This document shows, one piece after another, positions 9,943-41,742 of a DNA stretch of 64,000 nt. The notes beneath the pieces are model-generated. The model had not been told where the DNA came from. It saw nothing but the letters and a program-made list of their open reading frames with translations, and did no database searches. This stretch comes from Chloroflexota bacterium (GTDB lineage: Bacteria > Chloroflexota > Anaerolineae > DUEN01): assembly GCA_013152435.1 (NCBI GenBank), contig JAADGJ010000010.1, positions 13,911 to 77,910 of the forward strand, in the 5' to 3' direction. The position numbers and the translations under genes were made by a program. The first letter of the stretch is position 1. Every line of letters starts with the position of its first letter.

Positions 9943-10089
9943 AAGAAATCTATTTTCAGCCCCTCACCTGCTCCGTGGGGCCGGAGGCCACCGGCCAAAG
10001 CCCCAACCAGGCAGGGAAAAGGCGAGAACAAGAGTTTTCCTGCGGAGGGGAAGCCCCTCCGCACCTCCTCTTATCCTGAGAGAGCCCCG

Positions 10090-10818
10090 TTATTGCGCCT
10101 CCTCCATCCACGCGTCCTCCGGGAGGTTGTGCCCCGCGATCAGGAGAATGGTCAGCGCCAGTAACCAGGTCGACTCCTCCTCTGAGAGCGATCCGGCCGG
10201 GAACACGGCCGGGCTATGCCCCCATTTCCGCCGCTCCTGAAAGCTGGCCAGGCGGCCGATCTCCCGGCCGTGTAGGGTCACCGTGTGAGGCCGCCCCAGC
10301 TTCTCCCTAAGGGCTGCCTGGGCTCCCGCGACGAACAGGATGGGCGGCCCTCCCACCCGGGGGGCGCTTCCCACGGCCTCGCCCGTCGAGTCAAGCAGCG
10401 TCCCATCCGGCAGGATCGTCCCCCACAACTCCCCATCGATGTGGATCGTCGTGCGCTCCGGCGTGATATCGAAGGAGAAGGTATGCTCCGTCGTGCGAGC
10501 CTCCAGGGTCCCGCGCGTCGTCTCACGCCCCCCACGTATGTTGAACGTAAAGGCGATCCATGCGGGCCCTTTGGGATCATGCACGCTATGGATCATGCCC
10601 TGGCCGCGCACCCGTCGAGGGAGCTTCACCCAACGGGCTTCCCACTTGGCGGACAGATCCTCCAGGCTCTCCGGCGGCCAGGGGCGAAGGTGCGTCACGG
10701 CCCGGCGCCACCGGCGAATCAGCCATAGGACCAAGGCGACAAGTCCTGCCATTCCCAGGCCAACCAGGCAGATGGAGGCCAGGCAGATGATCGCCCAGTT
10801 TGGAGACGTGGAATCCAT
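10090..10818 (-). CDS. Uncharacterised membrane protein (N-terminal TM anchor, ~200-aa domain, C-terminal amphipathic/TM segment); paralog of 32213..33028.
   Basis: 242 aa. Clear paralogy to the 271-aa product of 32213..33028 (LRPWPPESLEDL / LRPWSSEGLTDL; GSAPR; LARTTE; WLLALTILLIAGHNL / WLLSLAILQIAGYNL). Start 10818 has an AAGGGGGG RBS and lies 10 nt after the stop of the metzincin gene. Confidence 0.7.
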   Translation of the reverse strand: MDSTSPNWAIICLASICLVGLGMAGLVALVLWLIRRWRRAVTHLRPWPPESLEDLSAKWEARWVKLPRRVRGQGMIHSVHDPKGPAWIAFTFNIRGGRETTRGTLEARTTEHTFSFDITPERTTIHIDGELWGTILPDGTLLDSTGEAVGSAPRVGGPPILFVAGAQAALREKLGRPHTVTLHGREIGRLASFQERRKWGHSPAVFPAGSLSEEESTWLLALTILLIAGHNLPEDAWMEEAQ

Positions 10819-10828
10819 CGTTCCCCCC

Positions 10829-13800
10829 TTATTCCTGGCTTATGGCGGGCATGAAGATCTGCACAGGAGGCCACTCGCCGACGGTGATGGTCACAGAGGC
10901 GCTGCCGGTCAAGCCATCGCTATCGATGGCGGTCAGGGTGATCGTGTGATAGCCTGGAGGCAGATCGGAGACCTCCAGGCTCGAACCGGAGCCCAGGTCG
11001 CCGCTGATGTCGGAGTGCCAGCGCAGCTGTGCATCCGCCTCGATCGGTCCATCCTCAATGTCCGTCCCATAACCCTTCAGATAGATCGGCGAACCCACGG
11101 GGAAGAAGGTCCCGGCCGTGGGGACGAGGATGCCCGCCAGGGGCGGCTTCCTCGGCACGGAGAAAACCCCATCGCTCTCATCGGCGGCGGTGTTCACCCC
11201 GTCGCTCGCCAGCACGCGCACCTTGGCCTGGTCGGAGCCGCCGATCTCTGATGTATCGACCGTATAGCTCGTCTCGGTCAGGTTCACGGCCATGGTGTGC
11301 CACGTCCCTCCGCCGTCGATGCTATATTGCAAAGTGTAGACGAGCGGGTCGCCGTCGGGATCGTTGCCATGCCAGCGTATTGTTATCGATCCGTCGAGCG
11401 CCTCGCCGCCGTTGGGATAGTCCATCGTGACCGTGGGCGGATTGGGGCTGACCTGGCGGGTGTCCAGGACCTTCTCACCGTGCAGAAGGACGATCGATCG
11501 CGTGCCGATTGGGAATGGCAGCACCTCTATCCAATAGCGCCGGGGCTCTGAGGTGTCGGAGTCGGCGATGTACTGCTGTGGCTCAAAGTAGCGCGTGAAC
11601 AGGACGTTGCCCGTCGCATCCCGCAGCTCCAGGCGGTAGGCACCCTCCCCCGGGGCATCGGCCGTGCCTACCGGGCGTCCTTCCACATAGGCGAATCCTA
11701 ACTCTCCTGTATCGGCCTCCACATCTACGAAGCCATTGATGAGCAGATAAGGTTGCTCCTGGTTGGTCCCCCGCGCAGCGCTGGACCCTGGGCGGATTAC
11801 CAGCTTTTTGAAGATCGCCTGATACGTGTATGGGCTGACCCAACCTGGCCAACAGTATGACATAAGATCATAGGTGGACGCCGGGTCATACACGCGCGGG
11901 GTAAAGCTGAAGACGTCGAATCCGAATTCGCCAATGGAAGAGAGCGGATAGGGGACACCTTGCGGATTCTTGTAGTTCGGATAGTTGGTGTCCTCACCGC
12001 TTGGATCCTTGCAATGTGGGTCAATGACTTTTCCTTTCTTGTCTCGCGCGCTGGGGGCATGTGCTCGCCCAAAGTTGTGGCCCAGCTCGTGTGCCATGGC
12101 GCGGCCGTTAAACGCTACCCCGGCTGCCACCGGCACCCTGGTTGAGCCTATTCCCGCGACGGCCAGTTTAGGGATGTTCTTGTCCACCAGCCCGTACCAG
12201 TTACGACGCGTATTGACAGAGCGGATCCGCAGCCAGTTCAGCTTGTCCAGTAGCGCCTCCCATCCCGCCCGCCTCGTCAGGTCATGCTTGAAGGGGAGGA
12301 CAGCGTAGCCCACCGGCCACCAGAGGCGAATCTGGGAAAGGGGGAAGGTCTTCTCCGTGTAGCGGGGCGTCTCGAACGCCGCCTGAAGGGGAGGTAGGTA
12401 GACGGTCGGTTTTTTCTGCCCCGCCGCCTGCGACTCATACCGTACGCGAACCATCACGATATCCAGTGGTCGCGTCTCCTGAAAGGTGACCGTCGCTTCA
12501 CGCCGATTATTGGTCAGGTCGCGTTCCGGGACCAGCTCTCCCGGGTTCAGATCGAAGACGAAGTGCATCCGTCCCCTGCTCCACCTGGAAGGTAGCTCAA
12601 AGTAGAAGCTGTGGTCAAGCCTCCCTCGCTGAGGATTGGTCCGGACGGTGATCAGCCTGTGAGGATGCCTTGGCTCCAGCCGGGCGATGAGAACCTTCGT
12701 CCCATTGCTGGCCACGGCATACACTTTCAGAACCGCAAATACCCCGCTTACAGACCCGCCCAAGGGCGAATTCGCCCTGACGTGCGCGCGCACGTAAGTC
12801 GGTCTGTTCTGCACCAAGGGGACGCTGTTGTTCAGATCCTGGATAGCCTGTGTGACTTCCAACGCCTGTATCTCCAGGTCCGGCAAGAGGTCTCGGCTGA
12901 ACTCGGAGGTGTTGCCCATGCCGTCCGTCGTCGTGAGCGTGAAGTATCTCCGTCTCCGTGCCACGGAGACGCTGTACTTGCCGGACGCGTCGGCCTGAAC
13001 GCTCGTCAGGAACTCCTCGCCCTCATCGGCATCATCAACGAAGACCTCCACGGTGCATTTGCCACAGGTGCTGCCCTCTAAGGTATACTGGCCGCCGGCG
13101 GACGTCACCCGGGTGACGGAGGGAGGGCTTAAGCCTTGATTTCCGCCTGACAGGAGGCGAATACCCCGACCCTCGTTTTTGAAGATGCTGTTGTGGGAGA
13201 TGGTATTGCGTATCGTATTGTGTCCTTCAATCCGGATGCCATCCCCCTTGTTGCCGGTGATCGTGTTCGCCATGCCCGACGAGGCCCCTCCGATCTGATT
13301 CATCTGGGCGCCGCCGGCGATGTATATACCGTGTGACCCGTTGGGAAGGGGGGCGGAGAAAGCTCCGATGCCTATGCGATTCCCCCACACCTTATTCCGA
13401 TCCGTGCCGACGTCGGTAATGGCCACGCCAAGTCGATTGTTCCCCGCGATCACATTCCCCGCGTCGGTATCTCTTCCCCCGATCTCATTCTCCTGAGCGC
13501 CGCCGGCAATGATCACGCCGTTGAGGTGATTGGGTATGGCAACTCGTCCCGTGAAATCGGTACCGATGTAATTGCCCAGCACCCGATTGCGCACCGTCCC
13601 CGTTCCGTAAATGTGTACCCCGTTGTCCTGGTTGCCGCTGATGATATTGTTCTCGAACAGATCAGTGCTGCCGATGATATTATCATGGGCGCCCGTGGCG
13701 ATGATCACGCCGGAGCCATCATTGGGGATGGCCATCTTCCCGGTGGCGTCGGTGCCGATGTAATTGCCAGTGACGGTGATGGCCGTGGAGGACTCCCAGA

Positions 13801-15961
13801 TGAGGATCCCATGGCGACCGTTTCCGCTGATGACGTTGCCCTCCGTATGGAACCCGCCGATGCGATGTTCTCTGCCGCGGGATATCTCGATCCCATCGCC
13901 GCCGTTACCCAAGTCCACATTGCCGCGCGGGTTCACGCCGATGCGGTTGCCGCGCACGACGTTGTCTCGTCCCGATTCGATGCGTATCCCATCCCCCATG
14001 TTGCCGCTGATGACGTTGGCAGAGAGCGCGCCAGGGGAGCCGACGGTGGTGCGACGGACGTTATCGAGATACACGCCGTCTCCGTGGTTGGGCAACGCGG
14101 TGGTGCCGAGGCGGTTCAGGCCAATGATGTTCCCCAGGATATAGGTCCTCTCAACGCCCGGTCCTCTGAGCTCGACGCCATGACTCAGGTTGCCGCTGAT
14201 CACGTTGCCCTCGCCATCGTTGGGGCCGCCGATGAAGTTGCTCCGAGCCTTCTGAGAGACGAGCACACCGATGCCGCCGTTGCCCAACGCCAGGTTGCCC
14301 TCTTTGTCGGTACCGATGACGTTCCCCCGCACGGAATTCTGGTCCGTGCCGGCGCCGGTGATCCATATGCCGCCGCTATCGTTGCCGCTGACTACGTTGC
14401 CGGGACCGATTTGATTCGCGTTGGCGCCGTCCTGGATGACGATCCCCCAACCGTGATTGGAGCGCCGCACCTCTCTGCCGGTGGGGTCCAGGCCGATGAT
14501 GTTCCGCTCTATCCGGTTCACCATGCTACCCGACCCGGCGATGAGCAGGCCGTGCTGCCCGTTCCCGCCGATCACGTTCCCCCGGATCAGGTTGTGGCTG
14601 GCGTTCTCGCTCAGGACCACGCCGATGCCGTTACCGGCCGGATTGCCGAGGGGGTCCAACCCCACGGTATTGGTGAGCACCTGATTGCTGGCCCCCTGGA
14701 TCCAGATGCCGTAATGCTCAAAGCCGGTGATGCTCAACCCCTGGATCACGACTTTGGTCCCCTCGACGATCAGGCCATCGCCGCCCGCGCCCAGGCGGGA
14801 TCCGTCGATCTGGATCTCGGGGCCGGCCGGGTTGGGGTCGCTGCCGATGAATCCCGCCTGACTGAAGCCATCTATGAGGAGGCCGGGCGCGGTCAGAGCG
14901 GGCAGGGTCGAGGTGACCTGGATGGTCCAGTAGCCGCCGGCCGGGTAGTAGCCCGGGTCCGAAGTGGGAATTCGGAACGTGATGTGCTTGACGAAATAGC
15001 GATTGGCCGCCTGAATGGCTTCGCGTAGGGAACAGTGCTGAAGCGTGCAGGCGCCATCGTCGCGATCGTCCGTAGTGTTCACCTCCCAGCGCAGTACGAA
15101 GGTCCAGCGAAGGCGGTAGGAGGCCGGCAGGACGGCCGTCCCGGGGTTCGCCCGAACGCCCACTCGGTAGGTCCCCCCGACCTCGGCCGGGTAGATGATG
15201 GCCTCCGCGCGGGTCCCGGGCGCGTCGGAGAACGCCACCTCCTCGCCGTTGGGGTCGAAGAGGACGAGAACGAGATCGATCGGCAGATCCGAGGGGGATG
15301 ATGCCGCCATCTCCGACACGCCGTCCACCTCGATCTGGAGGATCTGCCCGGGCGACACGTCGGGTAGCGCATAGTAATCCACGTCCTCCTCATGGCAGAT
15401 GTAGCTATCGACGGGCGCGTCAGGCTCGATGGACCATGCCTCCTCCGGGACATCGTTCGGCTCGTAGGGATCAGGGCAGGGAGCCGGGGTAGCGACCGAG
15501 TCCACGCGTAGGGTGTATGGGTTGGGTTGCTCGTCCTCCGTTCCCCAGACCACCGCGTAATACGTGCCCGCCTGATCCGCCGTGTGGACGATCTGTTCCG
15601 TTGTGGTCCCCGGGTTGGTCGAGGTGATGAGCACGGTCTGATCGGGCCCGTAGAGATCAAGGTTGCTATCCCATTCCATGCCGTAAAGGCTGATCGTGAT
15701 CTGCTGGCCCGTGGTCAGGGGAAAACGGAAGAAGTCGTTATCATCGGAATTGCATACGACGGCGTTGTATTCCACACCGAACTCCACCGGTGTGGCCTGG
15801 TCAAACCAGTTGTTGGGCTCGTAAGGATCGGTGCAGTCGGCGGGCAGGTGGGCCGTTGCCTCCCCATCTGGTGAGTCGCTTAGAACAACCGTACCGCCAA
15901 GGGCGAAGAGGACGAGGGGGAGGAGGAAGGCAACCAGCCATTGTGCGCGATGGAAGGACAT
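10829..15961 (-). CDS. Giant secreted multidomain metzincin-type zinc metalloprotease (1710 aa).
   Basis: Domain order read from the translation: signal peptide; two N-terminal PPC (pre-peptidase) domains (DPYEPNN...DDNDFFRF); CSLREA motif (TLQHCSLREAIQAAN); about 20 parallel beta-helix repeats (NVISGN.., GNRIG..); metzincin motif HELGHNFGRAH (12061..12093) plus Met-turn DLMSY; C-terminal Ig/PKD-like domains. The last residues are ...VQIFMPAISQE. RBS AAAGGAG. Confidence 0.85.
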   Translation of the reverse strand: MSFHRAQWLVAFLLPLVLFALGGTVVLSDSPDGEATAHLPADCTDPYEPNNWFDQATPVEFGVEYNAVVCNSDDNDFFRFPLTTGQQITISLYGMEWDSNLDLYGPDQTVLITSTNPGTTTEQIVHTADQAGTYYAVVWGTEDEQPNPYTLRVDSVATPAPCPDPYEPNDVPEEAWSIEPDAPVDSYICHEEDVDYYALPDVSPGQILQIEVDGVSEMAASSPSDLPIDLVLVLFDPNGEEVAFSDAPGTRAEAIIYPAEVGGTYRVGVRANPGTAVLPASYRLRWTFVLRWEVNTTDDRDDGACTLQHCSLREAIQAANRYFVKHITFRIPTSDPGYYPAGGYWTIQVTSTLPALTAPGLLIDGFSQAGFIGSDPNPAGPEIQIDGSRLGAGGDGLIVEGTKVVIQGLSITGFEHYGIWIQGASNQVLTNTVGLDPLGNPAGNGIGVVLSENASHNLIRGNVIGGNGQHGLLIAGSGSMVNRIERNIIGLDPTGREVRRSNHGWGIVIQDGANANQIGPGNVVSGNDSGGIWITGAGTDQNSVRGNVIGTDKEGNLALGNGGIGVLVSQKARSNFIGGPNDGEGNVISGNLSHGVELRGPGVERTYILGNIIGLNRLGTTALPNHGDGVYLDNVRRTTVGSPGALSANVISGNMGDGIRIESGRDNVVRGNRIGVNPRGNVDLGNGGDGIEISRGREHRIGGFHTEGNVISGNGRHGILIWESSTAITVTGNYIGTDATGKMAIPNDGSGVIIATGAHDNIIGSTDLFENNIISGNQDNGVHIYGTGTVRNRVLGNYIGTDFTGRVAIPNHLNGVIIAGGAQENEIGGRDTDAGNVIAGNNRLGVAITDVGTDRNKVWGNRIGIGAFSAPLPNGSHGIYIAGGAQMNQIGGASSGMANTITGNKGDGIRIEGHNTIRNTISHNSIFKNEGRGIRLLSGGNQGLSPPSVTRVTSAGGQYTLEGSTCGKCTVEVFVDDADEGEEFLTSVQADASGKYSVSVARRRRYFTLTTTDGMGNTSEFSRDLLPDLEIQALEVTQAIQDLNNSVPLVQNRPTYVRAHVRANSPLGGSVSGVFAVLKVYAVASNGTKVLIARLEPRHPHRLITVRTNPQRGRLDHSFYFELPSRWSRGRMHFVFDLNPGELVPERDLTNNRREATVTFQETRPLDIVMVRVRYESQAAGQKKPTVYLPPLQAAFETPRYTEKTFPLSQIRLWWPVGYAVLPFKHDLTRRAGWEALLDKLNWLRIRSVNTRRNWYGLVDKNIPKLAVAGIGSTRVPVAAGVAFNGRAMAHELGHNFGRAHAPSARDKKGKVIDPHCKDPSGEDTNYPNYKNPQGVPYPLSSIGEFGFDVFSFTPRVYDPASTYDLMSYCWPGWVSPYTYQAIFKKLVIRPGSSAARGTNQEQPYLLINGFVDVEADTGELGFAYVEGRPVGTADAPGEGAYRLELRDATGNVLFTRYFEPQQYIADSDTSEPRRYWIEVLPFPIGTRSIVLLHGEKVLDTRQVSPNPPTVTMDYPNGGEALDGSITIRWHGNDPDGDPLVYTLQYSIDGGGTWHTMAVNLTETSYTVDTSEIGGSDQAKVRVLASDGVNTAADESDGVFSVPRKPPLAGILVPTAGTFFPVGSPIYLKGYGTDIEDGPIEADAQLRWHSDISGDLGSGSSLEVSDLPPGYHTITLTAIDSDGLTGSASVTITVGEWPPVQIFMPAISQE

Positions 15962-16048
15962 GATCAGCTCCTTTCAGGACCCCCGTGGCATCCCGTGAGG
16001 GTCTCCCTCATCCGGCTAGTCCAACCGCGAGCGGCGCGTCGCATACGA

Positions 16049-18937
16049 TCACCCGCAAAGCGAGAACACGAGATAGCCCGCCGGACACACGATGGCCTGA
16101 TTCTCCTGCGTCGTGACGGCGATCCACTGGTCATCCGGGCTGAAGACGAGTCCCTGGAATGGGCCGCCCACGGGGAGAAGCTCAAGCCCTTGCTCCCCGC
16201 TGATGACCACATATGCCTCCGAGGAGCCAAGGGCGACCACGAGCTGCCCACCAGAAGAAAGCGCCAGCGTATGGATACTTTCCGGAGCGGGGATGCTGGC
16301 CGCGAGGGTTCCATCCACACGCCAGATGTGCAGCGCATAGCCCTCGTCGGTCGAGCCGTTGGTCAGGAACCCCCCGGGGTCGAGGAAGAGGAGCGTGTTC
16401 GGGTCGCCGGAGATCCCGGTTTTCACCGTGGCGACCGGTTCCCAGTCCTCTGTGCGCCAGATCTGTACCGTGCCCCCATAGGCGATAGCGACCAGATACG
16501 CGCCATCCGGCCCGAAGGCGACACCCTCGACGATGGGCGCGTGGACGCCTTCATACGGGAATCGGAGCTTCTGCACCACCGATCCGGTCTTCGCCTCGAT
16601 CACCGGCACCAGGCTCCCCTGGGCCGCCGAGACGGCCAGCGCGATCAGCCGGCCATCGGGGCTGAAGGCCAGGCCCATGATGCCGCCGAAGCTATCGCGA
16701 AAGGTCGCCGTGGGGGCGGCGTCCCCCTTCAGCAGCGCCGCCGTCTCCCACACGGTTAGATGATCCTGGAGATCGGCGGTGTAAGCTGTGGCCAGCAACG
16801 TCCCATCGGGGCTAAAGGCGATCTTACTGGCCTGGATAGGTTGAACGGCGAGCTGCTCAAAGGTTCGCCCATCGTAGAGGGCCAGGCGTGACGTGCCGGA
16901 CGAGCTATCCCAGAGGACCATCGCCACCCAGCGCCCCGCCGGGTCCCATGCCAGATCAAGGGGGCGCGTGCCTTCCGGGAGCGTAAGCGATGTGATCTCC
17001 TGCTCCACGGTCGATTCCGGCTGCGAGGTTGAGGAGAGATAGCGCCGGTCGTAGTACTCGCGGATCCTCTCCGGTGACCACCGGAGGCTTCGGAGCACTC
17101 GTAACACGGTCCCCTCGTGATAGCCCTCATTCCACAGGTCGGCTGGAGCCATCCAGAGGAAGTAGGCACGGATCCCTTGCTGCGGCTCCCAGAGTACCTC
17201 CAGGCCCTTACGTGTGCCGTCTTCGGAGGTAAACTCGGTGATGGTGACGGGGAGTCCCTGGGCATCCTCGCTCGTGTCCGTCTCGGCGGCCGGGCTCTCG
17301 CCGAAGGCTCGCTTTCGCAGCTCCTGAACGAACTGCTGGAAGATCTCCGCCAGGTCGGCGTCGGTGACGTCGGAATAGACGAACAGGAGCCCCTCGCCGG
17401 TCTGGTCGCTCTTAAACGCGTATCCGGTTGGCGGGTCGGTTAGCTCCTCCTCCTGGTCCAGCTGGGGGGGACGAGAGAAGGAGAAGAAACCCAAGGGCTC
17501 TTCATAAGGGGTCCACATGTTGAACTTTTTATGCACTCTGGGCGGGAACCAGGTGATTTCCAGTTCCTGCCACTGCTGCAGGCGTTGCTCCCAACGGTCC
17601 TTGGGCACGAGCCAGAAGCGGAGCAGGATGATGCCCCGATCTTCCTGGAGGCTGATCATCCCGCCGCGCTGCTCGGCCTCGGAGATCGCGTATGCGACGG
17701 CCACGCGCCCGCCCTCCGGGGCAGCTTGGGAGATGATCTCAGCATCGTCGCCGATCGTTGCGACGACCTCGGGGATGATCGCGTCCACCATCTCGCTCCA
17801 GGTGGCGTCATCCAGCGGCTGGCTGTCTACGGGGATGAACGAGATAGCCAGGGCCTCCGTATCCTCCGGGTTGCTGAAGATGTAGCCGTACTGGTTCTCG
17901 TCCGCGTTCTCCTCGACGACGCTGAGGTGCGCCGGATAGCGTATCGTGAACAGGCTGTTGGGGTCATAAGGATCGCCGAACTCGCTCCACCCCGAGGCTC
18001 CTTCGGGGGCAGGCGTGGGCGTGGGGGGCTCCACCTCCGCGCGCACGGTGAAGGTATAGGTCGCCACCTCCCGATCGTCGATGAGGAGCACCACCTTGTG
18101 TTCCCCTTCGGGCCATCCCTGCTCGGGCAGGTAGGAGAAGTAGAAGCCCGTGTCCTCGACGTTCTCCTGAGCTGTGATGGTGCGAGTGCCTGCCTCATCC
18201 AGTTGGCCGGACACATACCAGTGGGCTTCCAGCGTCGAGTGGAGTCCCAGGTCCACCCGGCCGACCACGAACACTTCCTCTGTAGGTGTGAAAGTGTCCG
18301 TGGGCTCGATCGGCTGGAAGTCCTCCGTCGCCCCCCGGGCCAGGACAGCCTGGCGCACCTGGGAGGGGATGGCCTCAGGCGGCGGGATGATGATGAACTC
18401 GTAGGATCCGGCCGGAGATCCGTTCAGGAGAATCTCCGCTCGGTAAAGATCGCTGATGGGGAATGGCTTCTCATGGGTGAGGGTGAAGCCCACGTTGGTG
18501 TTGCCCCCGATCACGAAGACCAGGCCCTGCTTCTTGCGCTCCTCGGCCAGATCCACGGTAGCCGATGCGATCTCCTGATCCTGATAGAGGAAACGGGCGG
18601 TCACCTGCCCTCCTTTGGGAGTGCCCTTCAGCTTGATGGAGAGGTAGATCGTCTCTTCCGGTGTAAACGTGTTGCCGGGATTGACGGGGGCGAATTCCTC
18701 CGTCAGGCCGTGGGCGAAGGTAGCCTCCAGGATCTTCAGAGCAGTCTGTTCCTCTGCGACGGGGGTGGGAGTGGGGACGATCTCCTCTTCCTCAGGCGCG
18801 GGCGTCTGCACGGCCGCCTCCCCGGCCGGAGCAGGCGTCGGCGTGGCCGGCTCCTCCTCACCGCCGCAGGCTGCCAACCCGAATGCAAGCGACAAGGCCA
18901 GGAACACGGTCAGAAGGTACATACGCATCTCTCGCAT
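16049..18937 (-). CDS. Lipoprotein with duplicated N-terminal domains and a C-terminal WD40/TolB-like beta-propeller (962 aa).
   Basis: Signal peptide with lipobox LAACGG and a TP/E-rich linker. Repeats FSPDGTLLATA, FSPDGRLIALA, FGPDGAYLVAIA and FSPDDQWIAVT are typical of beta-propeller blades. RBS GGAGGA. Confidence 0.75.
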   Translation of the reverse strand: MREMRMYLLTVFLALSLAFGLAACGGEEEPATPTPAPAGEAAVQTPAPEEEEIVPTPTPVAEEQTALKILEATFAHGLTEEFAPVNPGNTFTPEETIYLSIKLKGTPKGGQVTARFLYQDQEIASATVDLAEERKKQGLVFVIGGNTNVGFTLTHEKPFPISDLYRAEILLNGSPAGSYEFIIIPPPEAIPSQVRQAVLARGATEDFQPIEPTDTFTPTEEVFVVGRVDLGLHSTLEAHWYVSGQLDEAGTRTITAQENVEDTGFYFSYLPEQGWPEGEHKVVLLIDDREVATYTFTVRAEVEPPTPTPAPEGASGWSEFGDPYDPNSLFTIRYPAHLSVVEENADENQYGYIFSNPEDTEALAISFIPVDSQPLDDATWSEMVDAIIPEVVATIGDDAEIISQAAPEGGRVAVAYAISEAEQRGGMISLQEDRGIILLRFWLVPKDRWEQRLQQWQELEITWFPPRVHKKFNMWTPYEEPLGFFSFSRPPQLDQEEELTDPPTGYAFKSDQTGEGLLFVYSDVTDADLAEIFQQFVQELRKRAFGESPAAETDTSEDAQGLPVTITEFTSEDGTRKGLEVLWEPQQGIRAYFLWMAPADLWNEGYHEGTVLRVLRSLRWSPERIREYYDRRYLSSTSQPESTVEQEITSLTLPEGTRPLDLAWDPAGRWVAMVLWDSSSGTSRLALYDGRTFEQLAVQPIQASKIAFSPDGTLLATAYTADLQDHLTVWETAALLKGDAAPTATFRDSFGGIMGLAFSPDGRLIALAVSAAQGSLVPVIEAKTGSVVQKLRFPYEGVHAPIVEGVAFGPDGAYLVAIAYGGTVQIWRTEDWEPVATVKTGISGDPNTLLFLDPGGFLTNGSTDEGYALHIWRVDGTLAASIPAPESIHTLALSSGGQLVVALGSSEAYVVISGEQGLELLPVGGPFQGLVFSPDDQWIAVTTQENQAIVCPAGYLVFSLCG

Positions 18938-19014
18938 CTTTCTTTCCTCCGTTCGAACTCTGATTTCTCCACATCTCTCACCAGGGGAGACATCTTTCTC
19001 TGGTGGCTCTCACA

Positions 19015-22941: not shown

Positions 22942-22955
22942 AATGTCCCTCCCCG

Positions 22956-24017: not shown

Positions 24018-24046
24018 GATCCCTCTCCTTATCTTCAGAGGTGGAG

Positions 24047-25876: not shown

Positions 25877-25919
25877 AGACGGATTCTCCTAGGGTCGCTG
25901 CAAGAAAGCGACAGAACCG

Positions 25920-27950: not shown

Positions 27951-28080
27951 CTTGCCTCCCTGCCTTGAAAACAGGTTCTCCGACCGATTCTCGTGGTTCA
28001 CGGCGTCCCGTTAGGGGCACGGTGACTGTCATCAAAAGAGATGCCTTTCCCTTGCTCTTGCCGTCTACCGTCTGCCGGAT

Positions 28081-31000
28081 CTAGTTAGGGGATGCGTCAG
28101 ACTGCGGCCCCCGGACGCCGGCGGGCGTGGGCCATGCGTGCGGGACGGGCTTGGGCGAGGTCCCCTCGTGTCGCTCCAGGGGAGCGATCGAGTCCTCGGC
28201 CGGAAGGCCATATTCCCGGCTGGCGTGGCTCTGCGCGGCCGTGATGGGCTCGTCCCAGGCGATGGCCCGGAAATCGTCGAAGTGGACGATGCCCGGCGCG
28301 TAGCTGGAGGGCCAGTTGATCAGCCCAAAGTATCCTTGGCCGAGCAGGGAGACGTCGCTCAGGGTCTGCAGGTATTCATCGTTCACGAAGAGGTGAATCT
28401 TCGTCCCATCACGCACGGCCTTGAGCGTGTTGGGCGAACTGCCCGGCCGGATGGCTGAGGAGGGAAGCCACGCATCCCCCTCCGCGTCATCCCATGTGAG
28501 CGCCTGCCAGTTGCCCTGGTAGATCGCCAGGGCATACTCCATCGTATCGGGGATGATCAGGAACGCGTACAGGGAGTTGAACGATCCATCCTCGCCGAAG
28601 ATCAACCCGTACGCGATGGGGTAGTTGCTCGGCCGATGTCGGGCGGTCACCTGGAAGCTCCCGTTGGGATACGGGCCGATAGGAGCCCGGAAGACGCATG
28701 CCCAGTCGGGCTGGGTAGCGGTCACGTACTCCCCACCCTCATACGTCGCCTGGCAGACCTCTGTGCCGCTGGTGGGCCATCCGCTGCCGGAACTGCTGAA
28801 GTCGTCCTCCATGATCACCGTGGGGATGGTGATCTTGAAGTCGTCGAAGTAGGAGGTGGCCGATCCGGTGTTGTAGTACGCCCAGGTGGCCACGCCTACG
28901 TACCCGTTGCTGGGGAAGGCATTGTCCTTCACGGTGACCAAATCCACATCGTTGACATAAAGTGTGATCTGGTCTCCCTGGCGACGTACCTTGAGGACAT
29001 TGACCTGGTCGCCCGTTTGGATGGCGGGTGAGGCTCCCGCGTCGGTGACGTTGGTCCACGTGCCGTTATCGTATCGTTGCAGCAGGTAGGTCTGGTATGC
29101 AGCATCCACCCAGAAGACGTAGAACTGCTGGATGCTGTTGGGGGAGTCCAGGCCAAAGACCAGGCCGTAGACGCTGCCATCACCGGCGGAGGACTTGGCG
29201 GCTTTCACCTGGAAGACGCCATCCACCCGGGGTTGCGCCGGAGCTGCGGAGAGGCATACCTGTCCTAGCTGCAGGACGGCTACGCCATACATGCCGCTCA
29301 CGTAGGCATACTGGCACACCCCTGCCGCCCCGGAGGCCCAGCCGCTGGCCGGATTGGCGAAGTTGTCGTAGTAGACGCGCGGTGAAGGGGGCTGCGTCGG
29401 TGTAGGTGTGGGGCCGACGGGCGTCGGGGTCGGCGTCGGCGTGGCTGTGGCCGTGGGGGTCGGTGTACTGGTGGGCAGGAGCACAGCTGTGGCCGTGGGA
29501 GTGGGTGTGGGATAGCCGGTGGGGGTTGGTGTGGCCGTGGGAGCAGATGTAGGTGTAAATGTAGGCGTGCTGGTTGGGGTGGGGGTGAACTGCCCCATGT
29601 TCTTCCCCACCAGCGGGAGATGGAGGAGGGTGGACGGCGTTGTGCCGGGCCGGGTCGGCGTGGGGGTGGGGGCAGAGGTGCCCCCGGAAAGCTGCACGCG
29701 ATATACGCTGCGCCCGTGGGTTGCGGCCACGAGCACGTTCGCCTTCGCGTTCAGGACCAGATCCACGACTGCCACGGCGGGCAGGCCGTTATTGAAGGGC
29801 TCCCAGGTGCGCCCGTCATCACGGGTGCGGAAGACGCCGGTATCCGTGCCGATGTAGATCGTGCCGGGTGCGTCCGGATCCAGGGCGATGGAGAGGGCGG
29901 GCACGTCCGGCAGATTGCCGCTGATGTCCCGCCAGGTGGCGCCTCCGTCCGTGGTCTTGAACACGTGCCCGGGCTGCCCGGGAGTGTGGACGTTGAAGCC
30001 GTTATACACCACGTACGCCACGCGGGGATTTCGGGAGTCTACGGCGATGGCGGAGACCCAACGATTGGGTAGGGGAGGCTTGGTCACGTTCGTCCAGCTC
30101 CCTCCCGTGTTAGTGGTCACCTGCACGTTGCCGTCCGATGTGCCCACGTAGATGGTGCGGGGATCTGAGGGGGCCACGGCGATGGCGGAGATGCTGCCGG
30201 GCCGAGTTCCTCCTTTGGAGAGATCCCCGCTAATGGGCGTCCACGTATCGCCGCGATCGGTGGTCCGGTAGAGGCGATGCGTTCCGAAGTAGATTACGCC
30301 GGGCGTGGACGGATCCAGAGCGAACGGCGCGTAGAAGAGCGCCCGGTCCTGCTGGCCGATGCCCTCCGTCTTAATGGGCCAGTCATCCACGGGGGCGCTC
30401 CCGTTCTTCTCGTTGCGCTGGAAGGAGATGCCGAACCGGGTGCCGTAGTAGATGTTGGGATTGAAGGGATCGATGGCCACCCGGCCTCCGTCGCCCACGT
30501 CCAGCGCATCCCATACCAGCGCCCCTGTGGTCCTCGCCTTGTTGTTATCCTGCATGCCGCCGAAGATGATGTTGGGATTCGTGGGGTGGACGCCGATGCC
30601 CGTGAACTGGAGGGTGGCCAGGCCGTTGTTTCGATTCACCCATGTGCGCCCGCCGTCGGCGGATCTCCACACGCCGCCGTCGGTGCCCACCCATACCACG
30701 TTCGGATTTTTGGGATCGAACACGATGGCGTGGACGTCGGGATGGAGGGTGTGCTCGGGCGCGTCGTTAGGGCTCAGGTCCTGCCAGGTGGCCCCGCCGT
30801 CCGTGGACCGAACGACGACCTCCTTGATGCGCGTGACCGGCTGCCAGATGTAGTTGGCGGCCCCGCCCAGGTACACGATGTTAGGGTTTGTGGGGTGGAT
30901 GGATACCACGTTGTCGTACCAGCACTGGCCCATGCAGTAGTTGGGCGCGTTGCGCAGCCAGGTCCACGAATCGCCGCCGTCCGTGGTCTTGAAGACGATG

Positions 31001-32181
31001 CCGCCCTGGTATCGGTTGGGCTCCTCGTATTGATAGCCCGCGTAGAGGACGTTGGGGTTGGAGCGGCTGATATCCAGGGCGATCATCCCGAAGTTGCGCC
31101 CCGGCAGGCCGTTGGTCAGCCGCACCCAGCTCGCCCCGCCGTCGGTGCTGCGGAAGATGCCGATATTCCAGAAGGCCGCGTACAGGATATTGGGGTTGGT
31201 GGGATGCATGAGGAGGGCGGAGGCCCCGTAGCAATCCTGGCAGGCCAGGAGGGTCTGCCAGGTGCGCCCGCCGTCCGTGGATCGGTAGATGCCGCGCAAA
31301 GGACGCGCCGGGCCCGCGACGCCCGTGAAGGAGGTGGCCGCGTAGAGCAGGTTGGGCTGGCGTGGATGGACGATCAGGGCCCGGATGCCCAACCCGGTGA
31401 AGGCGTCGGCGGCCAGATGCTGCCAGGTGCGCCCGCCGTCCGTGGATTTGAGGATCCCCATGCCGTAGTAGTTGTCCAGGCCGGGGGTGGGCTCTCCGGT
31501 GCCCACGTAGATCGTGTCCGGATTGGAGGGATCCAGCGTGATGGTGCCGACGGCCAACGTGGGCTGGTCATCGGTGAGCGGAACCCAGCTGTCGCCGCCG
31601 TCCGTGGTCTTCCACACGCCTCCCAGCGCCGTGCCCAGATAGACCACGTCGCTGTTGCGCGGATCGATGGCGAGGGCGGTGACGCGGCCGCTGACCTTCA
31701 CCTTGTGACTGCCCATCTGAGAGTCTCGCATGCTTGCGGGGCCGATGTTCTCCCAGCGCGGCAGGGCTGCGGCTTTCCGCAGCATACGCGACATCTCGAT
31801 CGTCTGGCGGATGGCCTTGGGATACGCCCCCTTGGGCAGGGTATCCTGCGGATAGGCGCGTTGGGCCACGAAGAAGTGCAGACGCAGGCGTGGCTTCCCC
31901 GTCTCGTCCACCCCCGGCGGTATAGGCGGTCCCCCTGGTGGGACGAGCCGCCAGGAGGGAGGCCCACCCGCGGGCGTGGGGCGGGCGCGGCAGGCGAGGC
32001 AGTTGGGGCCATCGTCCGGGCGCCACGCGTCGGGGGCCGGGACATGCGCGAGCGAGTCGACCATGTAGGGCACGATGGGCTCGGAGAGGATCCCCTGATC
32101 CGAGCGCGTAAAGATGGCCAGCACAGCCAGAACCACGGCCAGCGAAAGGTATACGGGCAGACGTCGATCAGCGCCTCTCAT
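28081..32181 (-). CDS. Large membrane-anchored/secreted BNR/Asp-box repeat protein (GH74/sortilin-like twin beta-propellers) with two C-terminal concanavalin-like lectin/hydrolase domains (1366 aa).
   Basis: N-terminal hydrophobic anchor. More than 10 Asp-box motifs (S/T)xDGGxTW. A long TP linker (29395..29595). Two homologous ~180-aa C-terminal domains (YYDNFANPASGW.. / IMEDDFSSSGSGW..) of the DUF1080/LamG-like type. RBS GGAGGA. Confidence 0.75.
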   Translation of the reverse strand: MRGADRRLPVYLSLAVVLAVLAIFTRSDQGILSEPIVPYMVDSLAHVPAPDAWRPDDGPNCLACRARPTPAGGPPSWRLVPPGGPPIPPGVDETGKPRLRLHFFVAQRAYPQDTLPKGAYPKAIRQTIEMSRMLRKAAALPRWENIGPASMRDSQMGSHKVKVSGRVTALAIDPRNSDVVYLGTALGGVWKTTDGGDSWVPLTDDQPTLAVGTITLDPSNPDTIYVGTGEPTPGLDNYYGMGILKSTDGGRTWQHLAADAFTGLGIRALIVHPRQPNLLYAATSFTGVAGPARPLRGIYRSTDGGRTWQTLLACQDCYGASALLMHPTNPNILYAAFWNIGIFRSTDGGASWVRLTNGLPGRNFGMIALDISRSNPNVLYAGYQYEEPNRYQGGIVFKTTDGGDSWTWLRNAPNYCMGQCWYDNVVSIHPTNPNIVYLGGAANYIWQPVTRIKEVVVRSTDGGATWQDLSPNDAPEHTLHPDVHAIVFDPKNPNVVWVGTDGGVWRSADGGRTWVNRNNGLATLQFTGIGVHPTNPNIIFGGMQDNNKARTTGALVWDALDVGDGGRVAIDPFNPNIYYGTRFGISFQRNEKNGSAPVDDWPIKTEGIGQQDRALFYAPFALDPSTPGVIYFGTHRLYRTTDRGDTWTPISGDLSKGGTRPGSISAIAVAPSDPRTIYVGTSDGNVQVTTNTGGSWTNVTKPPLPNRWVSAIAVDSRNPRVAYVVYNGFNVHTPGQPGHVFKTTDGGATWRDISGNLPDVPALSIALDPDAPGTIYIGTDTGVFRTRDDGRTWEPFNNGLPAVAVVDLVLNAKANVLVAATHGRSVYRVQLSGGTSAPTPTPTRPGTTPSTLLHLPLVGKNMGQFTPTPTSTPTFTPTSAPTATPTPTGYPTPTPTATAVLLPTSTPTPTATATPTPTPTPVGPTPTPTQPPSPRVYYDNFANPASGWASGAAGVCQYAYVSGMYGVAVLQLGQVCLSAAPAQPRVDGVFQVKAAKSSAGDGSVYGLVFGLDSPNSIQQFYVFWVDAAYQTYLLQRYDNGTWTNVTDAGASPAIQTGDQVNVLKVRRQGDQITLYVNDVDLVTVKDNAFPSNGYVGVATWAYYNTGSATSYFDDFKITIPTVIMEDDFSSSGSGWPTSGTEVCQATYEGGEYVTATQPDWACVFRAPIGPYPNGSFQVTARHRPSNYPIAYGLIFGEDGSFNSLYAFLIIPDTMEYALAIYQGNWQALTWDDAEGDAWLPSSAIRPGSSPNTLKAVRDGTKIHLFVNDEYLQTLSDVSLLGQGYFGLINWPSSYAPGIVHFDDFRAIAWDEPITAAQSHASREYGLPAEDSIAPLERHEGTSPKPVPHAWPTPAGVRGPQSDASPN
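29395..29595 (-). repeat. About 200-bp hexanucleotide coding repeat for a roughly 65-residue Thr-Pro-rich linker.
   Basis: (GGCGTN/GGTGTG/GGGGTN)n on the plus strand; the peptide is TPTPTSTPTFTPTSAPTATPTPTGYPTPTPTATAV..TPTPTATATPTPTPTP. Confidence 0.8.
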
Positions 32182-32212
32182 CTCGTATCCTCCGAATCCA
32201 CGACGGCCTTTC

Positions 32213-33028
32213 TCAGTCTATCCACGCGGTTTCCATCAGGTTGTACCCGGCGATCTGGAGGATCGCCAGGGATAGCAGCCAGATCTCCGCCTCTCTGGAG
32301 GGGGACCCCTCCAACGTGATGGCGGGGGTAAGAGCTCTCCTTCGCAAGTGAATGACGCCCTTCAGCCGGGCTGGAGGGCAGGCCAGATGACCGATGGTCT
32401 CCCCCCGGATCGTGACCGGGTAGGAGCGTTCTCGAGTATCACGCAAGCGGGTGATGGGGCCGATGCTGAAGCGGATAGGGGACCTCTTCGGCCGGGGTGC
32501 GCTGCCGATGGGCTGTTCCTCTGCGTCGAGGAGTATGCCGTCAAGGCGGATGCTTCCCCATGGCTCTCCGTCCACCTGGATCATGACGCTATCTGGCGTG
32601 ATGCGGTAGGCGAAGGACTGTTCGGTCGTGCGAGCCAGAAGATGCCCATCGGGTCGGCGGGCGCCGCGCACTTTCAAACCGAAGGCGACCCACGATGGCC
32701 CATCGGGATCGCTTCGGCTGGGGATGGTGCCCCGCGCGTTCAGATCCCTGCCGATCCTCCACCAACGAGCTCTCCAGCCGGCGGCGAGATCGGTCAGACC
32801 CTCCGAAGACCAGGGGCGGAGCTGAGCGACCATTTCGTCTAACTGCTCCTGCAGCTGCTCCCACCCTTCGGCCAGGGTAGTGGCATCCGGGGGACGCCAT
32901 TGGCGATGGATGGTGTACATCATGAACACCGCCAGCGCGATGAGCCCCAGCCCCCCGATGCAGAAGGGAAGCACGCAGCCGGCGATCGTCAGGAGTTCGG
33001 CGAAGGTCCTCGTCCCGCCCACGGGCAC
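32213..33028 (-). CDS. Uncharacterised membrane protein, paralog of 10090..10818.
   Basis: 271 aa with an N-terminal TM helix. Alignable throughout with the 10090..10818 product (see that entry). Probable GTG start at 33028 with a GAGGGAG RBS. Confidence 0.65.
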   Translation of the reverse strand: MPVGGTRTFAELLTIAGCVLPFCIGGLGLIALAVFMMYTIHRQWRPPDATTLAEGWEQLQEQLDEMVAQLRPWSSEGLTDLAAGWRARWWRIGRDLNARGTIPSRSDPDGPSWVAFGLKVRGARRPDGHLLARTTEQSFAYRITPDSVMIQVDGEPWGSIRLDGILLDAEEQPIGSAPRPKRSPIRFSIGPITRLRDTRERSYPVTIRGETIGHLACPPARLKGVIHLRRRALTPAITLEGSPSREAEIWLLSLAILQIAGYNLMETAWID

Positions 33029-33037
33029 TATCTCCCT

Positions 33038-34507
33038 CTATCCTTTCTTCACCATCACCGGCAGGAAGTAGCGATGGATTTTCGTCTGCTGGCCCGCCGG
33101 ATCGTACTCGTAGGCGCCGATATCGCAGACCGCGGAGCCGTTGCCATCGCCGTCCAAGGGGCGAGCCACGCCGCGTTGGTCGGTGGCAAGGCAAGTGGTG
33201 TTCAAACCGGCATCTACGGCGGGACTGTTACTTGGGAGAGCGTGCGTGGGGGTGGCACCGCCGTTATCCGCTAGCGGGAGCAGGCGTGGGTCTTTGCCGG
33301 TGATATTCCCGGTCGATGTGCCGCCGATGGTGCACTGGCTGGTCACCGTTTGGATCAGGTTATGGCCCAGGGAGGTGAGCTTGCCCCAACAATCCCGATC
33401 CCCGTTGGGGTCCTGGTTCCCGGCGATGAGGGTGTTGGTCAGCCGCACCACCGGCGAAGTCTCTTCAGAGGCGGAGAGCTCGTTGTAGACCCCGCCGCCA
33501 CGCCCCAGCCCGTCTCCGTCGAGATCTGCCGTGTTGTTCGCAATGGTCACGTTGGCCAGGGATACGGCGCCCTGGACGCCGATCGCGTTGCTGTTATAGA
33601 TCCCGCCACCGCGCCCATTCGTGCGGTTTCCGCTGATGGTGCTGTTGGCCAGCGTGAGCGTCCCACCGCTGTTCCGAATTCCACCTCCGCCTTCGTCATA
33701 GGCTACCGCCTCCGCGAAGTTCTCACTGAACGTGCTGGTCGCGATGGTGGTGGTTGAGTATACGTTGTTGAGGAGCGCGCCGCCCTCGCGTAGGGCTGAG
33801 TTCCCCCGGAAGAGGCTGTTTCGCACGATGACCGCATTGCCGTTGTTCGCCAGCCCCCCCCCGTTCATCCCAGCGTAGTTGTTCAGAAGCTGGACGTTTT
33901 CCAGTGTGGCGGAGGCGTTGTCGGTGACCTGAATGCCGCCGCCATTGCCGTCGCTCCGGTTATCGGTCAGCAGGACGTTCTTCACGAGGATCTGAGCCCG
34001 GCCAGAGACCTGAATGCCGCCGCCATGGGGTGGGTTGATGGCATGGCCGTTGCGGATCGTCATACCGGAGATCGTGACGAGGAAGGCCCCGGATGAAACC
34101 CCTACGATGTCGAAGACGCGATCGCTTTTGTTCCCGTCGATGATGGTCTTTCCGATCCCCGCGCCGTTGATGGCCAGGCTGGCTGTGATGTCCAGGTCGC
34201 CCATTGCGGCCGCATCCTCGTCGACCCCGGCGATGGTCAATTTGTAAATGCCCGCCGGCAGGGTGATGATATCGGCGCCGCTCCCCGCGGGGCAGGCGTC
34301 AACGGCGGTGTCCGTGTTGGCGGCCCGAATGGCCTCCCGTAAGGAGCAATCTCCATCGCTGTTCAACTCATCGTCGGTGGTGTTCACGGTGATCGTGGTC
34401 GCGGCCTGTGCGATGGGGGAGGGCAGTGCGGGCCAGGACCAGACGAGTGAGGACAGGATCAAGAGGGTGAGAAGCATCTTCGTGCGACTACCTTTCCTGA
34501 GCTGCAT
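33038..34507 (-). CDS. Secreted CSLREA-domain parallel-beta-helix repeat protein (489 aa).
   Basis: Signal peptide; N-terminal NTTDDELNSDGDCSLREAIRAAN (the CSLREA motif); GGGI-type beta-helix repeats; C-terminal ...DQRGVARP...CDIGAYE. It ends ...HRYFLPVMVKKG. RBS AAGGAGG is 7 nt before the ATG. Confidence 0.8.
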   Translation of the reverse strand: MQLRKGSRTKMLLTLLILSSLVWSWPALPSPIAQAATTITVNTTDDELNSDGDCSLREAIRAANTDTAVDACPAGSGADIITLPAGIYKLTIAGVDEDAAAMGDLDITASLAINGAGIGKTIIDGNKSDRVFDIVGVSSGAFLVTISGMTIRNGHAINPPHGGGIQVSGRAQILVKNVLLTDNRSDGNGGGIQVTDNASATLENVQLLNNYAGMNGGGLANNGNAVIVRNSLFRGNSALREGGALLNNVYSTTTIATSTFSENFAEAVAYDEGGGGIRNSGGTLTLANSTISGNRTNGRGGGIYNSNAIGVQGAVSLANVTIANNTADLDGDGLGRGGGVYNELSASEETSPVVRLTNTLIAGNQDPNGDRDCWGKLTSLGHNLIQTVTSQCTIGGTSTGNITGKDPRLLPLADNGGATPTHALPSNSPAVDAGLNTTCLATDQRGVARPLDGDGNGSAVCDIGAYEYDPAGQQTKIHRYFLPVMVKKG

Positions 34508-34551
34508 GCAGGCGCCTCCTTTTCGTGTAGTGCAAATGTTCTGCTTCGACG

Positions 34552-34764
34552 TTAGGGTCCTTCAGCGTTCCTGGTGGGGGGATCGAGAGGCGAGGAGGTC
34601 TGCTCTCGTAGATAGGCGATCAGTGCCTCCACGGAAGGGAACCCCTGGCGTTTTCCAGTTCGGGTATCTTCCAGGGAGGCTCGCCAGATGGGGGAGTCGT
34701 CACCTGACTCGGCCCACAGGCGTAGAAGGAAGGAATAGTATGGATATCGATCCAACGGGCTCAT
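34552..34764 (-). CDS. Small hypothetical protein (70 aa) between the regulator and the secreted-protein cluster.
   Basis: ATG at 34764 with a GGGAGG RBS (rc of 34771..34776). No recognisable domain, and codon bias is gene-like. Whether it is co-transcribed with the cluster is unknown. Confidence 0.4.
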   Translation of the reverse strand: MSPLDRYPYYSFLLRLWAESGDDSPIWRASLEDTRTGKRQGFPSVEALIAYLREQTSSPLDPPTRNAEGP

Positions 34765-34990
34765 GAGGAACCTCCCAACGCATGGGCGGTGCACTGGATC
34801 CTCGCATGGACGCGGCGGCATTATATGCCCCAGGATACAGTGTCCGGGCAATGGCACAGTGACTTCAATAGCACAATGGTGTCAGGAAAGTGTCAGGAGG
34901 GAGCCCTAGATCCGGTTCAGGGGTGGGTTTTCGATGAATGGAATATGGTAAAATAGGCCTAAGTAAGGGAGGGGCTCTGGGGGAAGGGAA

Positions 34991-40284: not shown

Positions 40285-41742
<1,458 letters not shown>

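Follow-up and report, generated by a model that had tools for sequence, protein, structure and literature searches.

The stretch analysed here, hereafter the window, comprises 64,000 nucleotides of a Chloroflexota bacterium (assembly GCA_013152435.1, contig JAADGJ010000010.1, positions 13,911 to 77,910), and its subject is a block of co-directional genes for large, mostly exported multidomain proteins. In the list of open reading frames (ORFs) of the window, ten large minus-strand ORFs, named g10 to g1 from the upstream end, fill the interval between purM and an AfsR-type SARP regulator gene (Table 1). Start codons were set by gene calls on a contig of a metagenome-assembled genome (MAG) with 99% identity (GCA_054014295.1, locus L001; other compared loci are cited by such numbers) and by GGAG-type ribosome-binding sites, which precede g9, g6, g5, g4, and g1; the ATG of g5 at 24017 has AAGGAG upstream. 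The intergenic gaps from g10 to g1 are, in order, 9, 31, 130, 43, 29, 14, 77, 87, and 10 nt. An earlier first-pass annotation, made by a model from the letters of the DNA, had placed ten minus-strand genes here with gaps of 9-130 bp. The ORF list and the refined starts confirm these ten, whereas an eleventh gene, g11, had gone undescribed although it lies inside the reported range. The g11 sequence is framed as YSFLLRLW...WRASLEDTRTGKRQGF...LIAYL and matches no Pfam or NCBIfam family. Its copy in L007, 98.6% identical, differs at 15 codons synonymously and at 1 non-synonymously; as synonymous changes dominate, g11 is a real gene, and the pattern of substitutions indicates strong purifying selection.

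Table 1. Genes, C-terminal tails, and regulatory features of the block and its borders (positions in the window)
Feature	Position	Strand	Remarks
g11, 70 aa	34552-34764	-	first gene of block, 44 nt upstream of g10; called in L001 and L007
g10, CSLREA + beta-helix (Chlam_PMP) + choice-of-anchor Q surface protein	33038-34507	-	
g9, membrane protein	32213-33028	-	paralogue of g1
g8, twin BNR/sortilin propeller + TP linker + two DUF6250-like jelly rolls	28081-32181	-	
g7, six FG-GAP repeats + PPC	25920-27950	-	start from L001 gene call
g6, PD40/TolB-like propeller protein	24047-25876	-	
g5, double-PPC protein with TP linkers	22956-24017	-	
g4, three PPC-like modules + TP linkers + StcE-like metzincin module	19015-22941	-	
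g3, lipoprotein: duplicated N-terminal domains + C-terminal WD40 propeller	16049-18937	-	no tail
g2, two PPC + CSLREA + long beta-helix + StcE-like metzincin + Ig-like domains	10829-15961	-	
g1, membrane protein, last block gene	10090-10818	-	paralogue of g9
g10 tail YFLPVMVKKG	33041-33070	-	C-terminal residues ..HRYFLPVMVKKG
g7 tail IYLPIIRRQ	25923-25949	-	protein ends ..RHIYLPIIRRQ
g6 tail IYIPHVMR	24050-24073	-	protein ends ..RKIYIPHVMR
g5 tail IYLPVLLHM	22959-22985	-	protein ends ..IKIYLPVLLHM
g4 degenerate tail FFPTMLRELPLGAP	19018-19059	-	protein ends ..QTFFPTMLRELPLGAP
g2 tail IFMPAISQE	10832-10858	-	protein ends ..VQIFMPAISQE
Candidate SARP box, TCCTGACAC-N2-TCCTGACAC	34879-34898	-	direct repeat, 11-bp period; in 226-nt divergent region
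10-bp GC hairpin, UGCGGAGGGG-CUU-CCCCUCCGCA	10041-10063	-	~25 nt past g1 stop, terminator-like
AfsR-type SARP regulator	34991-38449	+	divergent from block
purM	8746-9834	+	convergent with g1
Tyrosine recombinase (integrase)	39136-40260		borders island, divergent from gene array

Searches with the Pfam and NCBIfam hidden Markov models (HMMs) agree with the domain types assigned in the first pass. The surface protein g10 scores 40.4 bits against CSLREA (TIGR04214, cutoff 25) and 91.6 bits against choice-of-anchor Q (NF041518, cutoff 25), both above cutoff, and g2 likewise reaches 40.4 bits for CSLREA, along with two PPC domains and Beta_helix/NosD matches. In g8, Sortilin-Vps10 (125 bits) and NF045728, the F510_1955 family (196.5 bits against a cutoff of 175), are accompanied by a weak DUF6250 match. 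FG-GAP scores 216.5 bits over six repeats in g7, which also has a PPC domain and 210-nt repeats in its DNA. PD40/TolB-like matches characterize g6, PPC matches g5 and g4, and the lipobox LAACGG together with WD40-type matches g3. Analysis of DNA repeats also shows internal FG-GAP, beta-helix, and BNR repeats.

The claimed reuse of modules across the products is confirmed. The PPC domain is present in four proteins, as described (g2, g4, g5, and g7), and its N-terminal motif is repeated six times in their DNA (repeat family D6); the second PPC of g5 is visible in BLAST and DNA-repeat results, and the block holds eight PPC-like modules overall. TP linkers, put at five proteins or more, were overstated, being clear in four (g3, g4, g5, and g8; DNA repeats D1/D3, with linker repeats in g4, g5, and g8) and only vestigial in g7 and g2. 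Both pairs named as paralogues are related, the membrane proteins g1 and g9 with 40% identity (E 6e-57) and the metzincins g2 and g4 with 29% identity over 705 aa (E 4e-59), covering the last ~700 residues, with 55% in the first PPC. A shared CBM-like 'NGxFE...W' module in g6 and g4 is not claimed, the similarity being weak (E 0.021). All eight non-membrane products start with a signal peptide, a signal anchor, or a lipobox, read by eye from the sequences, in line with their earlier placement outside the cell or in its envelope. A further module had been missed, namely a YLP-type tail at the C-terminus of six of the ten products.

The YLP-type tail has the form hydrophobic-Y/F-L-P-hydrophobic-hydrophobic, and the protein stops 4-6 residues past the proline (10 in g4). 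The pattern [YF][LIFM]P within the last 14 residues is present in 6 of the 10 block products and, out of 358 long frames in the window, in just two others, both probably non-coding; every such tail on a genuine gene of the window, six in all, belongs to the block. As codon usage differs among the six tails, their conservation is at the peptide level. The carriers are exported, each starting with a basic n-region and a hydrophobic stretch (read by eye). Among homologues, a YLP-type tail closes 63 of the 120 best g10 homologues and ~11 of 120 metzincin homologues at the same position, with the consensus [YH]x[VLI]YLP[LIV][IV]x[RK] followed by 0-3 residues. Of 240 C-termini, a loose pattern fits 72 and a strict one 37, compared with 0.56% and 0.019% of internal windows, respectively. 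Other g10 homologues carry a transmembrane helix plus RRRR anchor or a dockerin-like end at this position, or SLH domains in L014; the tail therefore sits where anchors sit.

Beyond these homologues, a metagenome scan with one exact variant (YLP[L][IV][L][RK]NH-stop) returned at least 120 contigs, and among the 120 listed the variant ends an ORF of at least 60 aa in 107. Sixty-two such tail proteins span 58 distinct Pfam families; the 25 listed are all of extracellular type and include PKD, beta-helix, DUF11, LVIVD, Calx-beta, GH16, CBM11, and Peptidase_C25. Tail genes cluster elsewhere too, three consecutive in L018, four in L020, and four in L003. Canonical tails match NCBIfam NF050076 (sort_motif_YLP) and NF053834 (ultrashort_CTERM), both annotated as 'YLP-box putative sorting motif', with 14.4-18.3 bits against curated cutoffs of 15 or 10 bits, and tails of neighbouring genes pass or nearly pass the models (L004, 16.2; L015, 16.8 and 16.2; L002, 14.8 and 13.0 bits). 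The candidate view of the tail as an unmodelled novelty was dropped, since canonical metagenome tails match these models. The six tails of the window appear to be a divergent form of the already catalogued YLP-box putative sorting motif. The first-pass annotation knew of no named system with this composition, which holds for the cluster and not for the tail that unifies it, and the most distinctive feature of the block is thus already catalogued, though never characterised.

Comparison with known display systems places the tail further. With YLP-box proteins the block shares a very short motif at the extreme C-terminus of many unrelated extracellular domains, often behind a Thr/Pro-rich linker; the difference is that the six window tails are divergent and go unreported by the models. 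LPXTG/sortase, PEP-CTERM/exosortase, and other 'choice-of-anchor' systems likewise consist of sets of exported proteins with a common short C-terminal signature, often clustered and with low-complexity linkers. The choice-of-anchor Q domain of g10 is found ahead of signals of this kind in other bacteria. Unlike LPXTG and PEP-CTERM signals, the window tails have no transmembrane helix, as only 4-6 residues (10 in g4) follow the proline, and no classical basic cluster, and no cognate sortase or exosortase domains occur in the window. Cellulosome and type IX secretion system (T9SS) cargo resembles the block in bearing one common C-terminal tag on varied secreted enzymes and binding proteins whose genes are often clustered, and some g10 homologues end in dockerin-like sequences as in the cellulosome; here, in contrast, the tag is ~10 residues long rather than a folded domain, and no scaffoldin or T9SS genes are present. 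No sortase, exosortase, rhombosortase, or secretion gene was found in the 64 kb window. ORF clustering at the 120 tail loci (619 kb) gave no recurrent neighbours other than an antisense artefact, a response-regulator-linked cluster, and a few LuxR-STAND regulators.

Two further observations concern tails in other settings. An internal YLP-like motif of g8, LLHLPLVGKNMG at 29593-29628 (-), lies just before the TP linker and the two jelly rolls, is conserved in L007, and looks like a former C-terminal tail that may have been buried through gene fusion. In the metagenomes, canonical YLPLVLRNH tails also close very small exported proteins with clear A-x-A signal peptides and a Gly/Tyr-rich core of ~60 aa (GGGYDLxW...GGGYxLxGGFW or CxGYWCG), found at L024 1156-1437, L039 2190-2471, L054, L081, L088, L031, L097, L134, and L075; their similarity to the CPR pilus protein PamT is weak and sub-threshold (E 9e-6, 25 bits against a cutoff of 240).

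Two of the tail carriers are the metzincins, with the zinc-site sequences HEIAHCLGMHH in g4 and HELGHNFGRAH in g2. No Pfam peptidase family matches either protein at cutoff; Reprolysin and M66 give sub-threshold matches at the zinc site, and against PF10462 (Peptidase_M66) g2 and g4 score 11.6-11.8 bits, below the cutoff of 20.6. No direct PDB sequence match was found. Homologues are at most 37% identical, and PF10462 is present in ~30 of the 120 listed, some of which also carry CARDB. In a 46-sequence alignment, H272, E273, H276, G279, and H282 are invariant or nearly so, and the Met-turn D346-x-M348-x-Y350-C351 is conserved. The near-invariance of HExxHxxGxxH and of the D-x-M-x-Y-C Met-turn justifies the label metzincin, and an Ig-like domain accompanies the metzincin catalytic domain. 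The fold is StcE-like, yet by HMM the proteins do not formally belong to M66. From the mucin-type metzincins StcE/TagA (MEROPS M66) they differ in lying far under the Pfam M66 cutoff and in their fusion to PPC, beta-helix, and Ig-like modules.

The membrane paralogues g1 and g9 belong to a family matched by no Pfam or NCBIfam model, and all nine genome matches of the g9 family are Chloroflexota MAGs. Foldseek returned no significant match of g9 in the PDB. The family is possibly tubby-like, of the tubby/LOR (DUF567)/scramblase-like kind in which a beta-barrel encloses a C-terminal helix. A basic cluster (RRWRR/RRQWR) follows the N-terminal helix in both and, by the positive-inside rule, points to a cytoplasmic location of the domain. 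Each of the two genes follows one for a CSLREA tail protein after a gap of 9-10 nt (g9 behind g10, g1 behind g2), and the pairing of a CSLREA-tail gene with such a membrane gene is also seen in L002, L003, L004, and L012, which could point to a substrate and its enzyme, with g1 and g9 as sorting or processing factors for YLP tails. We consider this explanation highly improbable. With 7 clusters from a word search and 229 representatives from a profile search, the family is rare next to the abundant YLP tails; no member was found in the 120 tail loci totalling 619 kb; the relative Dive96 keeps a tail-bearing g10 without g9; and L009, L011, L013, and L014 have the membrane protein without a tail gene. 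The predicted cytoplasmic position of the domain also disfavors it, and no catalytic motif or enzyme fold was found in g1 or g9. Absent from the tail loci and from beside the Dive96 g10, and present without tail genes elsewhere, the g9 family is not a general partner of YLP tails. Separately, giant proteins of 1100-4300 aa (P0269, P0277, P0292, P0350, and P0389) match positions 137-179 of the g9 profile 10 to 23 times each, so that this stretch of the beta-domain resembles a widespread beta-hairpin repeat.

The regulator reported beside the block is confirmed as an AfsR-type SARP in divergent orientation. Pfam matches comprise BTAD (67.6 bits), Trans_reg_C (26.2 bits, at cutoff), NB-ARC, AAA_22, NACHT, and TPR, which together give the AfsR-type architecture of an OmpR-type winged helix, BTAD, NB-ARC, and TPR. 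SARP regulators usually bind direct repeats one helical turn apart. The candidate SARP box occurs once in the window against 0.07 occurrences expected by chance, and it lies inside a perfectly conserved stretch of the divergent region in common with L007; by analogy with known SARP behaviour, the regulator probably binds this TCCTGACAC repeat. Actinomycete AfsR-type SARPs have the same architecture, the same divergent orientation toward the presumed target, and an 11-bp-period direct repeat in the common promoter region, and the difference is that the presumed targets here are exoprotein genes rather than antibiotic biosynthesis genes.

At the other end of the block, the region 9960-10089 (-), behind g1, folds with -70.1 kcal/mol (z -2.57), while the internal intergenic regions fold no better than shuffled sequences (z -1.25 to +0.13). 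The tight gaps, the ribosome-binding sites, the single SARP-box candidate, and a hairpin only after the last gene fit co-transcription without proving it. The layout behind the earlier phrase 'apparently co-regulated' therefore stands; the operon itself we infer, and the block is probably one operon under SARP control. In the interval between the convergent purM and g1 (9835-10089), three hairpins rich in GC and perfect or nearly so, GGGGCGACGCATGCGTCGCCCC and GGAGGGGCTGCAGCCCCTCC among them, escaped the T-run terminator scan.

Gene content was compared with close relatives. L001, at 99% identity, is collinear from the regulator to g4, where its contig ends. Dive96_bin10.82 (GCA_024277095.1; L007 and L015), at 86-98% identity, has the regulator, g11, and g10, followed directly by g8 with no g9; at its other end, g2 and a g1 with 91% identity are separated from purM by a second SARP gene and a third metzincin. 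These two extra genes occupy L015 1748-6533 (JAJRVX010000334.1), and the third StcE-like metzincin ends in the canonical tail RRLFLPLIRR (16.8 bits to NF050076). Caldilineae J4 (L016), at 77-86%, has the integrase, an unrelated PD40 gene, g3 (77% identical), a g2 remnant, the first half of g1, and purM. Here ~20 kb from g4 to the regulator, and with it g4-g10 and the regulator, are absent and replaced by ~650 nt. The decayed copy (L016 9788-10354, DUEN01000065.1) retains 155 nt of g2 (53 codons, residues 63-115) fused to codons 1-129 of g1, with purM immediately adjoining, and no repeats mark the junctions in the window. GCA_054014895.1 (L006) has a g11 fragment and g10 (61% identical), then directly purM. 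Sequence change is uneven as well: between g10 and L007 4213-5682 there are 69 non-synonymous and 130 synonymous codon changes (86% amino acid identity), while in the same genome pair g8 is 94% and g11 98.6% identical, indicating a much higher rate of evolution in g10 than in the genes around it. Next to the integrase, the gene for a tryptophanase-like beta-eliminating lyase (40285-41715, -) is absent from J4, where GH38 lies ~270 nt from the integrase, so the variability reaches beyond the exoprotein block.

The comparison bears on the first-pass view of the ten genes as a dedicated, co-evolving system, a fixed surface, predation, or biofilm apparatus with interdependent parts. Such a system would be in keeping with the co-directional, tightly spaced genes, the adjoining regulator, the PPC, TP, tail, and CSLREA modules in common, and the full collinearity of the 99% relative as far as its contig extends. 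Nevertheless, synteny of the block as a whole fails in related genomes: content changes at each step away, with g9 missing in Dive96, most of the block in J4, and g10 alone of the ten left in GCA_054014895.1, so the ten-gene set is not conserved as a unit. Distant loci of the g9 family carry different cargo, and the block encodes no secretion, assembly, or sorting component. A fixed system of this kind is consequently quite unlikely, and of the proposed dedicated cell-surface module the exported, module-sharing, operon-like character stands while the single conserved ten-gene system does not. What we favor, with somewhat better than even confidence, is that the block is a regulated, fast-evolving, variable exoprotein island of Chloroflexota of the Anaerolineae/Caldilineae lineage, and not a fixed multi-part machine.

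An alternative would be that the adjacent tyrosine recombinase brought in or shuffled the genes, making the block a mobile genomic island or an array of integron type. The integrase stands at the island border, divergent from the array, and in J4 it keeps its place (86% identity) although the content between integrase and purM differs by ~20 kb. That it stays where most of the island is missing speaks against this alternative. The window has no tRNA gene and a uniform GC content (0.60-0.66), and no att- or attC-like repeats were found at the island borders or indel junctions, no direct repeats of 9-11 nt or longer linking them. Gaps of 9-44 nt are too short for attC, the longer ones lack significant structure, and the relatives found are all Chloroflexota chromosomal contigs (phage and plasmid collections not searched). 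A mobile-element origin, whether by import or by shuffling, is very unlikely. A 686-nt non-coding spacer (38450-39135) separates the integrase from the SARP gene. Part of it is unusually rich in AT, and the sequence TTGCCC-17-TATATT at 38810-38838, with an extended TG, resembles a promoter. Caldilineae J4 has conserved 52 nt of the spacer (38820-38871), at a distance of ~2 kb from its own integrase.

The variable island nevertheless includes parts that recur in distant Anaerolineae, at loci only 39-56% identical to the window. L002 brings together a SARP-STAND regulator, a g11-like gene, a CSLREA/beta-helix protein with YLP tail, a g3-like lipoprotein, and a g9-family protein, and parts of this set are found in L003, L004, L005, L009, L012, L014, L017, and L020. 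A SARP-STAND gene stands beside CSLREA/tail genes in L002, L007, L017, and L020 and beside g9-family genes in L002, L009, L014, and L015; SARP genes occur at 4 of 11 g9-family loci (109 kb) against 0 of 120 control tail loci (619 kb), and those 619 kb of unrelated YLP-tail loci hold neither a SARP nor a g9-family match. Genes resembling g3 orthologues adjoin g9-family genes in L002 (49% and 34% identity) and L005. Homologues of g11 lie at L002 4318-4533, at L017 11636-11794 (49% identity), and in the metagenome loci L021, L028, and L122; their signature, [YF]xLLRLW(R/A)E...WRA(S/T)LEDxxTG(E/K)RxGF...L(I/V)AYL, recurs beside SARP-STAND regulators and CSLREA genes. From the comparison a small recurrent core emerges: regulator, g11, and a beta-helix protein with CSLREA, frequently joined by a g9-family protein and a g3-like lipoprotein. 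This core, its CSLREA protein anchored by a YLP tail or by SLH domains, could tentatively be viewed as an undescribed Anaerolineae-type signalling and display cassette, in which the membrane protein and g11 would feed an envelope signal to the STAND regulator, switching exchangeable YLP-tagged exoproteins, although we regard this as doubtful. In L017 the g11-like domain is fused to a 196-aa protein. In L014 (Anaerolineales MAG DATLZK010000042.1) a CSLREA/choice-of-anchor-Q-like protein at 10887-12740, beside g9-family and SARP-STAND genes, carries terminal SLH domains in place of the YLP tail, a different anchor in an equivalent gene setting.

Recurrence of the core also bears on the null explanation, namely that unrelated exoprotein genes, sharing neither regulation nor purpose, came to lie together by chance. 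Content does vary among relatives, the domain types are common in Chloroflexota secretomes, and promoter and terminator scans are uninformative, all of which chance would allow. It would leave unexplained why all six genuine YLP-type tails of the window sit in the block, why it also holds two pairs of paralogues and eight PPC-like modules, why its genes have ribosome-binding sites and are spaced by 9-130 nt, why tail genes cluster in L018, L020, and L003 too, and why SARP-STAND, CSLREA, and g9-family genes come together repeatedly in loci of 39-56% identity and are absent from the control tail loci. A purely accidental cluster is thus improbable.

As a regulated and variable island, the block might work as follows. 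The divergent AfsR-type SARP-STAND regulator would bind the 11-bp-spaced repeat and activate a single long transcript running from g11 to the hairpin behind g1. Eight products would be exported via the Sec or lipoprotein pathway, to judge from their signal peptides and the g3 lipobox, and the tail on six of these eight would most likely retain or sort the proteins at the cell envelope. The predicted cargo consists of two StcE-like metzincins, a twin propeller of BNR/sortilin type bearing lectin-like jelly rolls, FG-GAP and PD40 propellers, beta-helix proteins, and PPC/TP spacers. Such a mix likely serves adhesion, or else to capture and degrade glycoproteins or polysaccharides outside the cell. 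The set would grow and shrink through duplication, module shuffling, fusion, and deletion, with only the small core recurring.

Several points weigh against this picture. The YLP-box models report none of the six window tails, whether given as full proteins, as 29-31-aa ends, or as 20-aa ends, although HMMER filters may hide weak scores; their assignment to the YLP-box comes from our own pattern and from positional equivalence in homologues, and the tails of g2 (IFMPAISQE) and g4 (FFPTMLRE...) match weakly. The function of the YLP-box is itself annotated as 'putative'. A literature search found no publication on the motif and nothing relevant in work on Chloroflexi sorting signals or CSLREA, and no sorting enzyme was found in the window or among the neighbours at the 120 tail loci. 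On the regulatory side, an exact 7-mer periodic search found no SARP-box-type repeat in the distant loci, and scans for consensus sigma-70 promoters and T-run terminators stayed at chance level and so do not define transcription units; both the operon and the link from regulator to target are inferred.

Sediments, hot springs, and wastewater sludge harbour abundant Chloroflexota, and to our knowledge the export of their proteins and their retention on an unusual envelope have barely been studied. With six carriers of YLP-box tails behind one candidate SARP-controlled promoter, the block offers a compact place to test the tail as a sorting signal and the switching of exoproteins. The comparison with relatives indicates that exoprotein arsenals turn over fast between close relatives, as expected for surface or feeding functions under changing selection, and cautions that a dense exoprotein cluster need not be a fixed 'system'.

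The PADLOC defence models gave no match for the regulator, g1, g9, g10, g11, or the integrase, so that no STAND/Avs-like defence was recognized among them, and an Rfam search of the window found no family. Outside the block the window is otherwise of housekeeping character, with genes for a two-component system, GH20, an ECF transporter, a tryptophanase-like lyase, GH38, HflX, Der, CdaA, OTCase, and pyruvate kinase.

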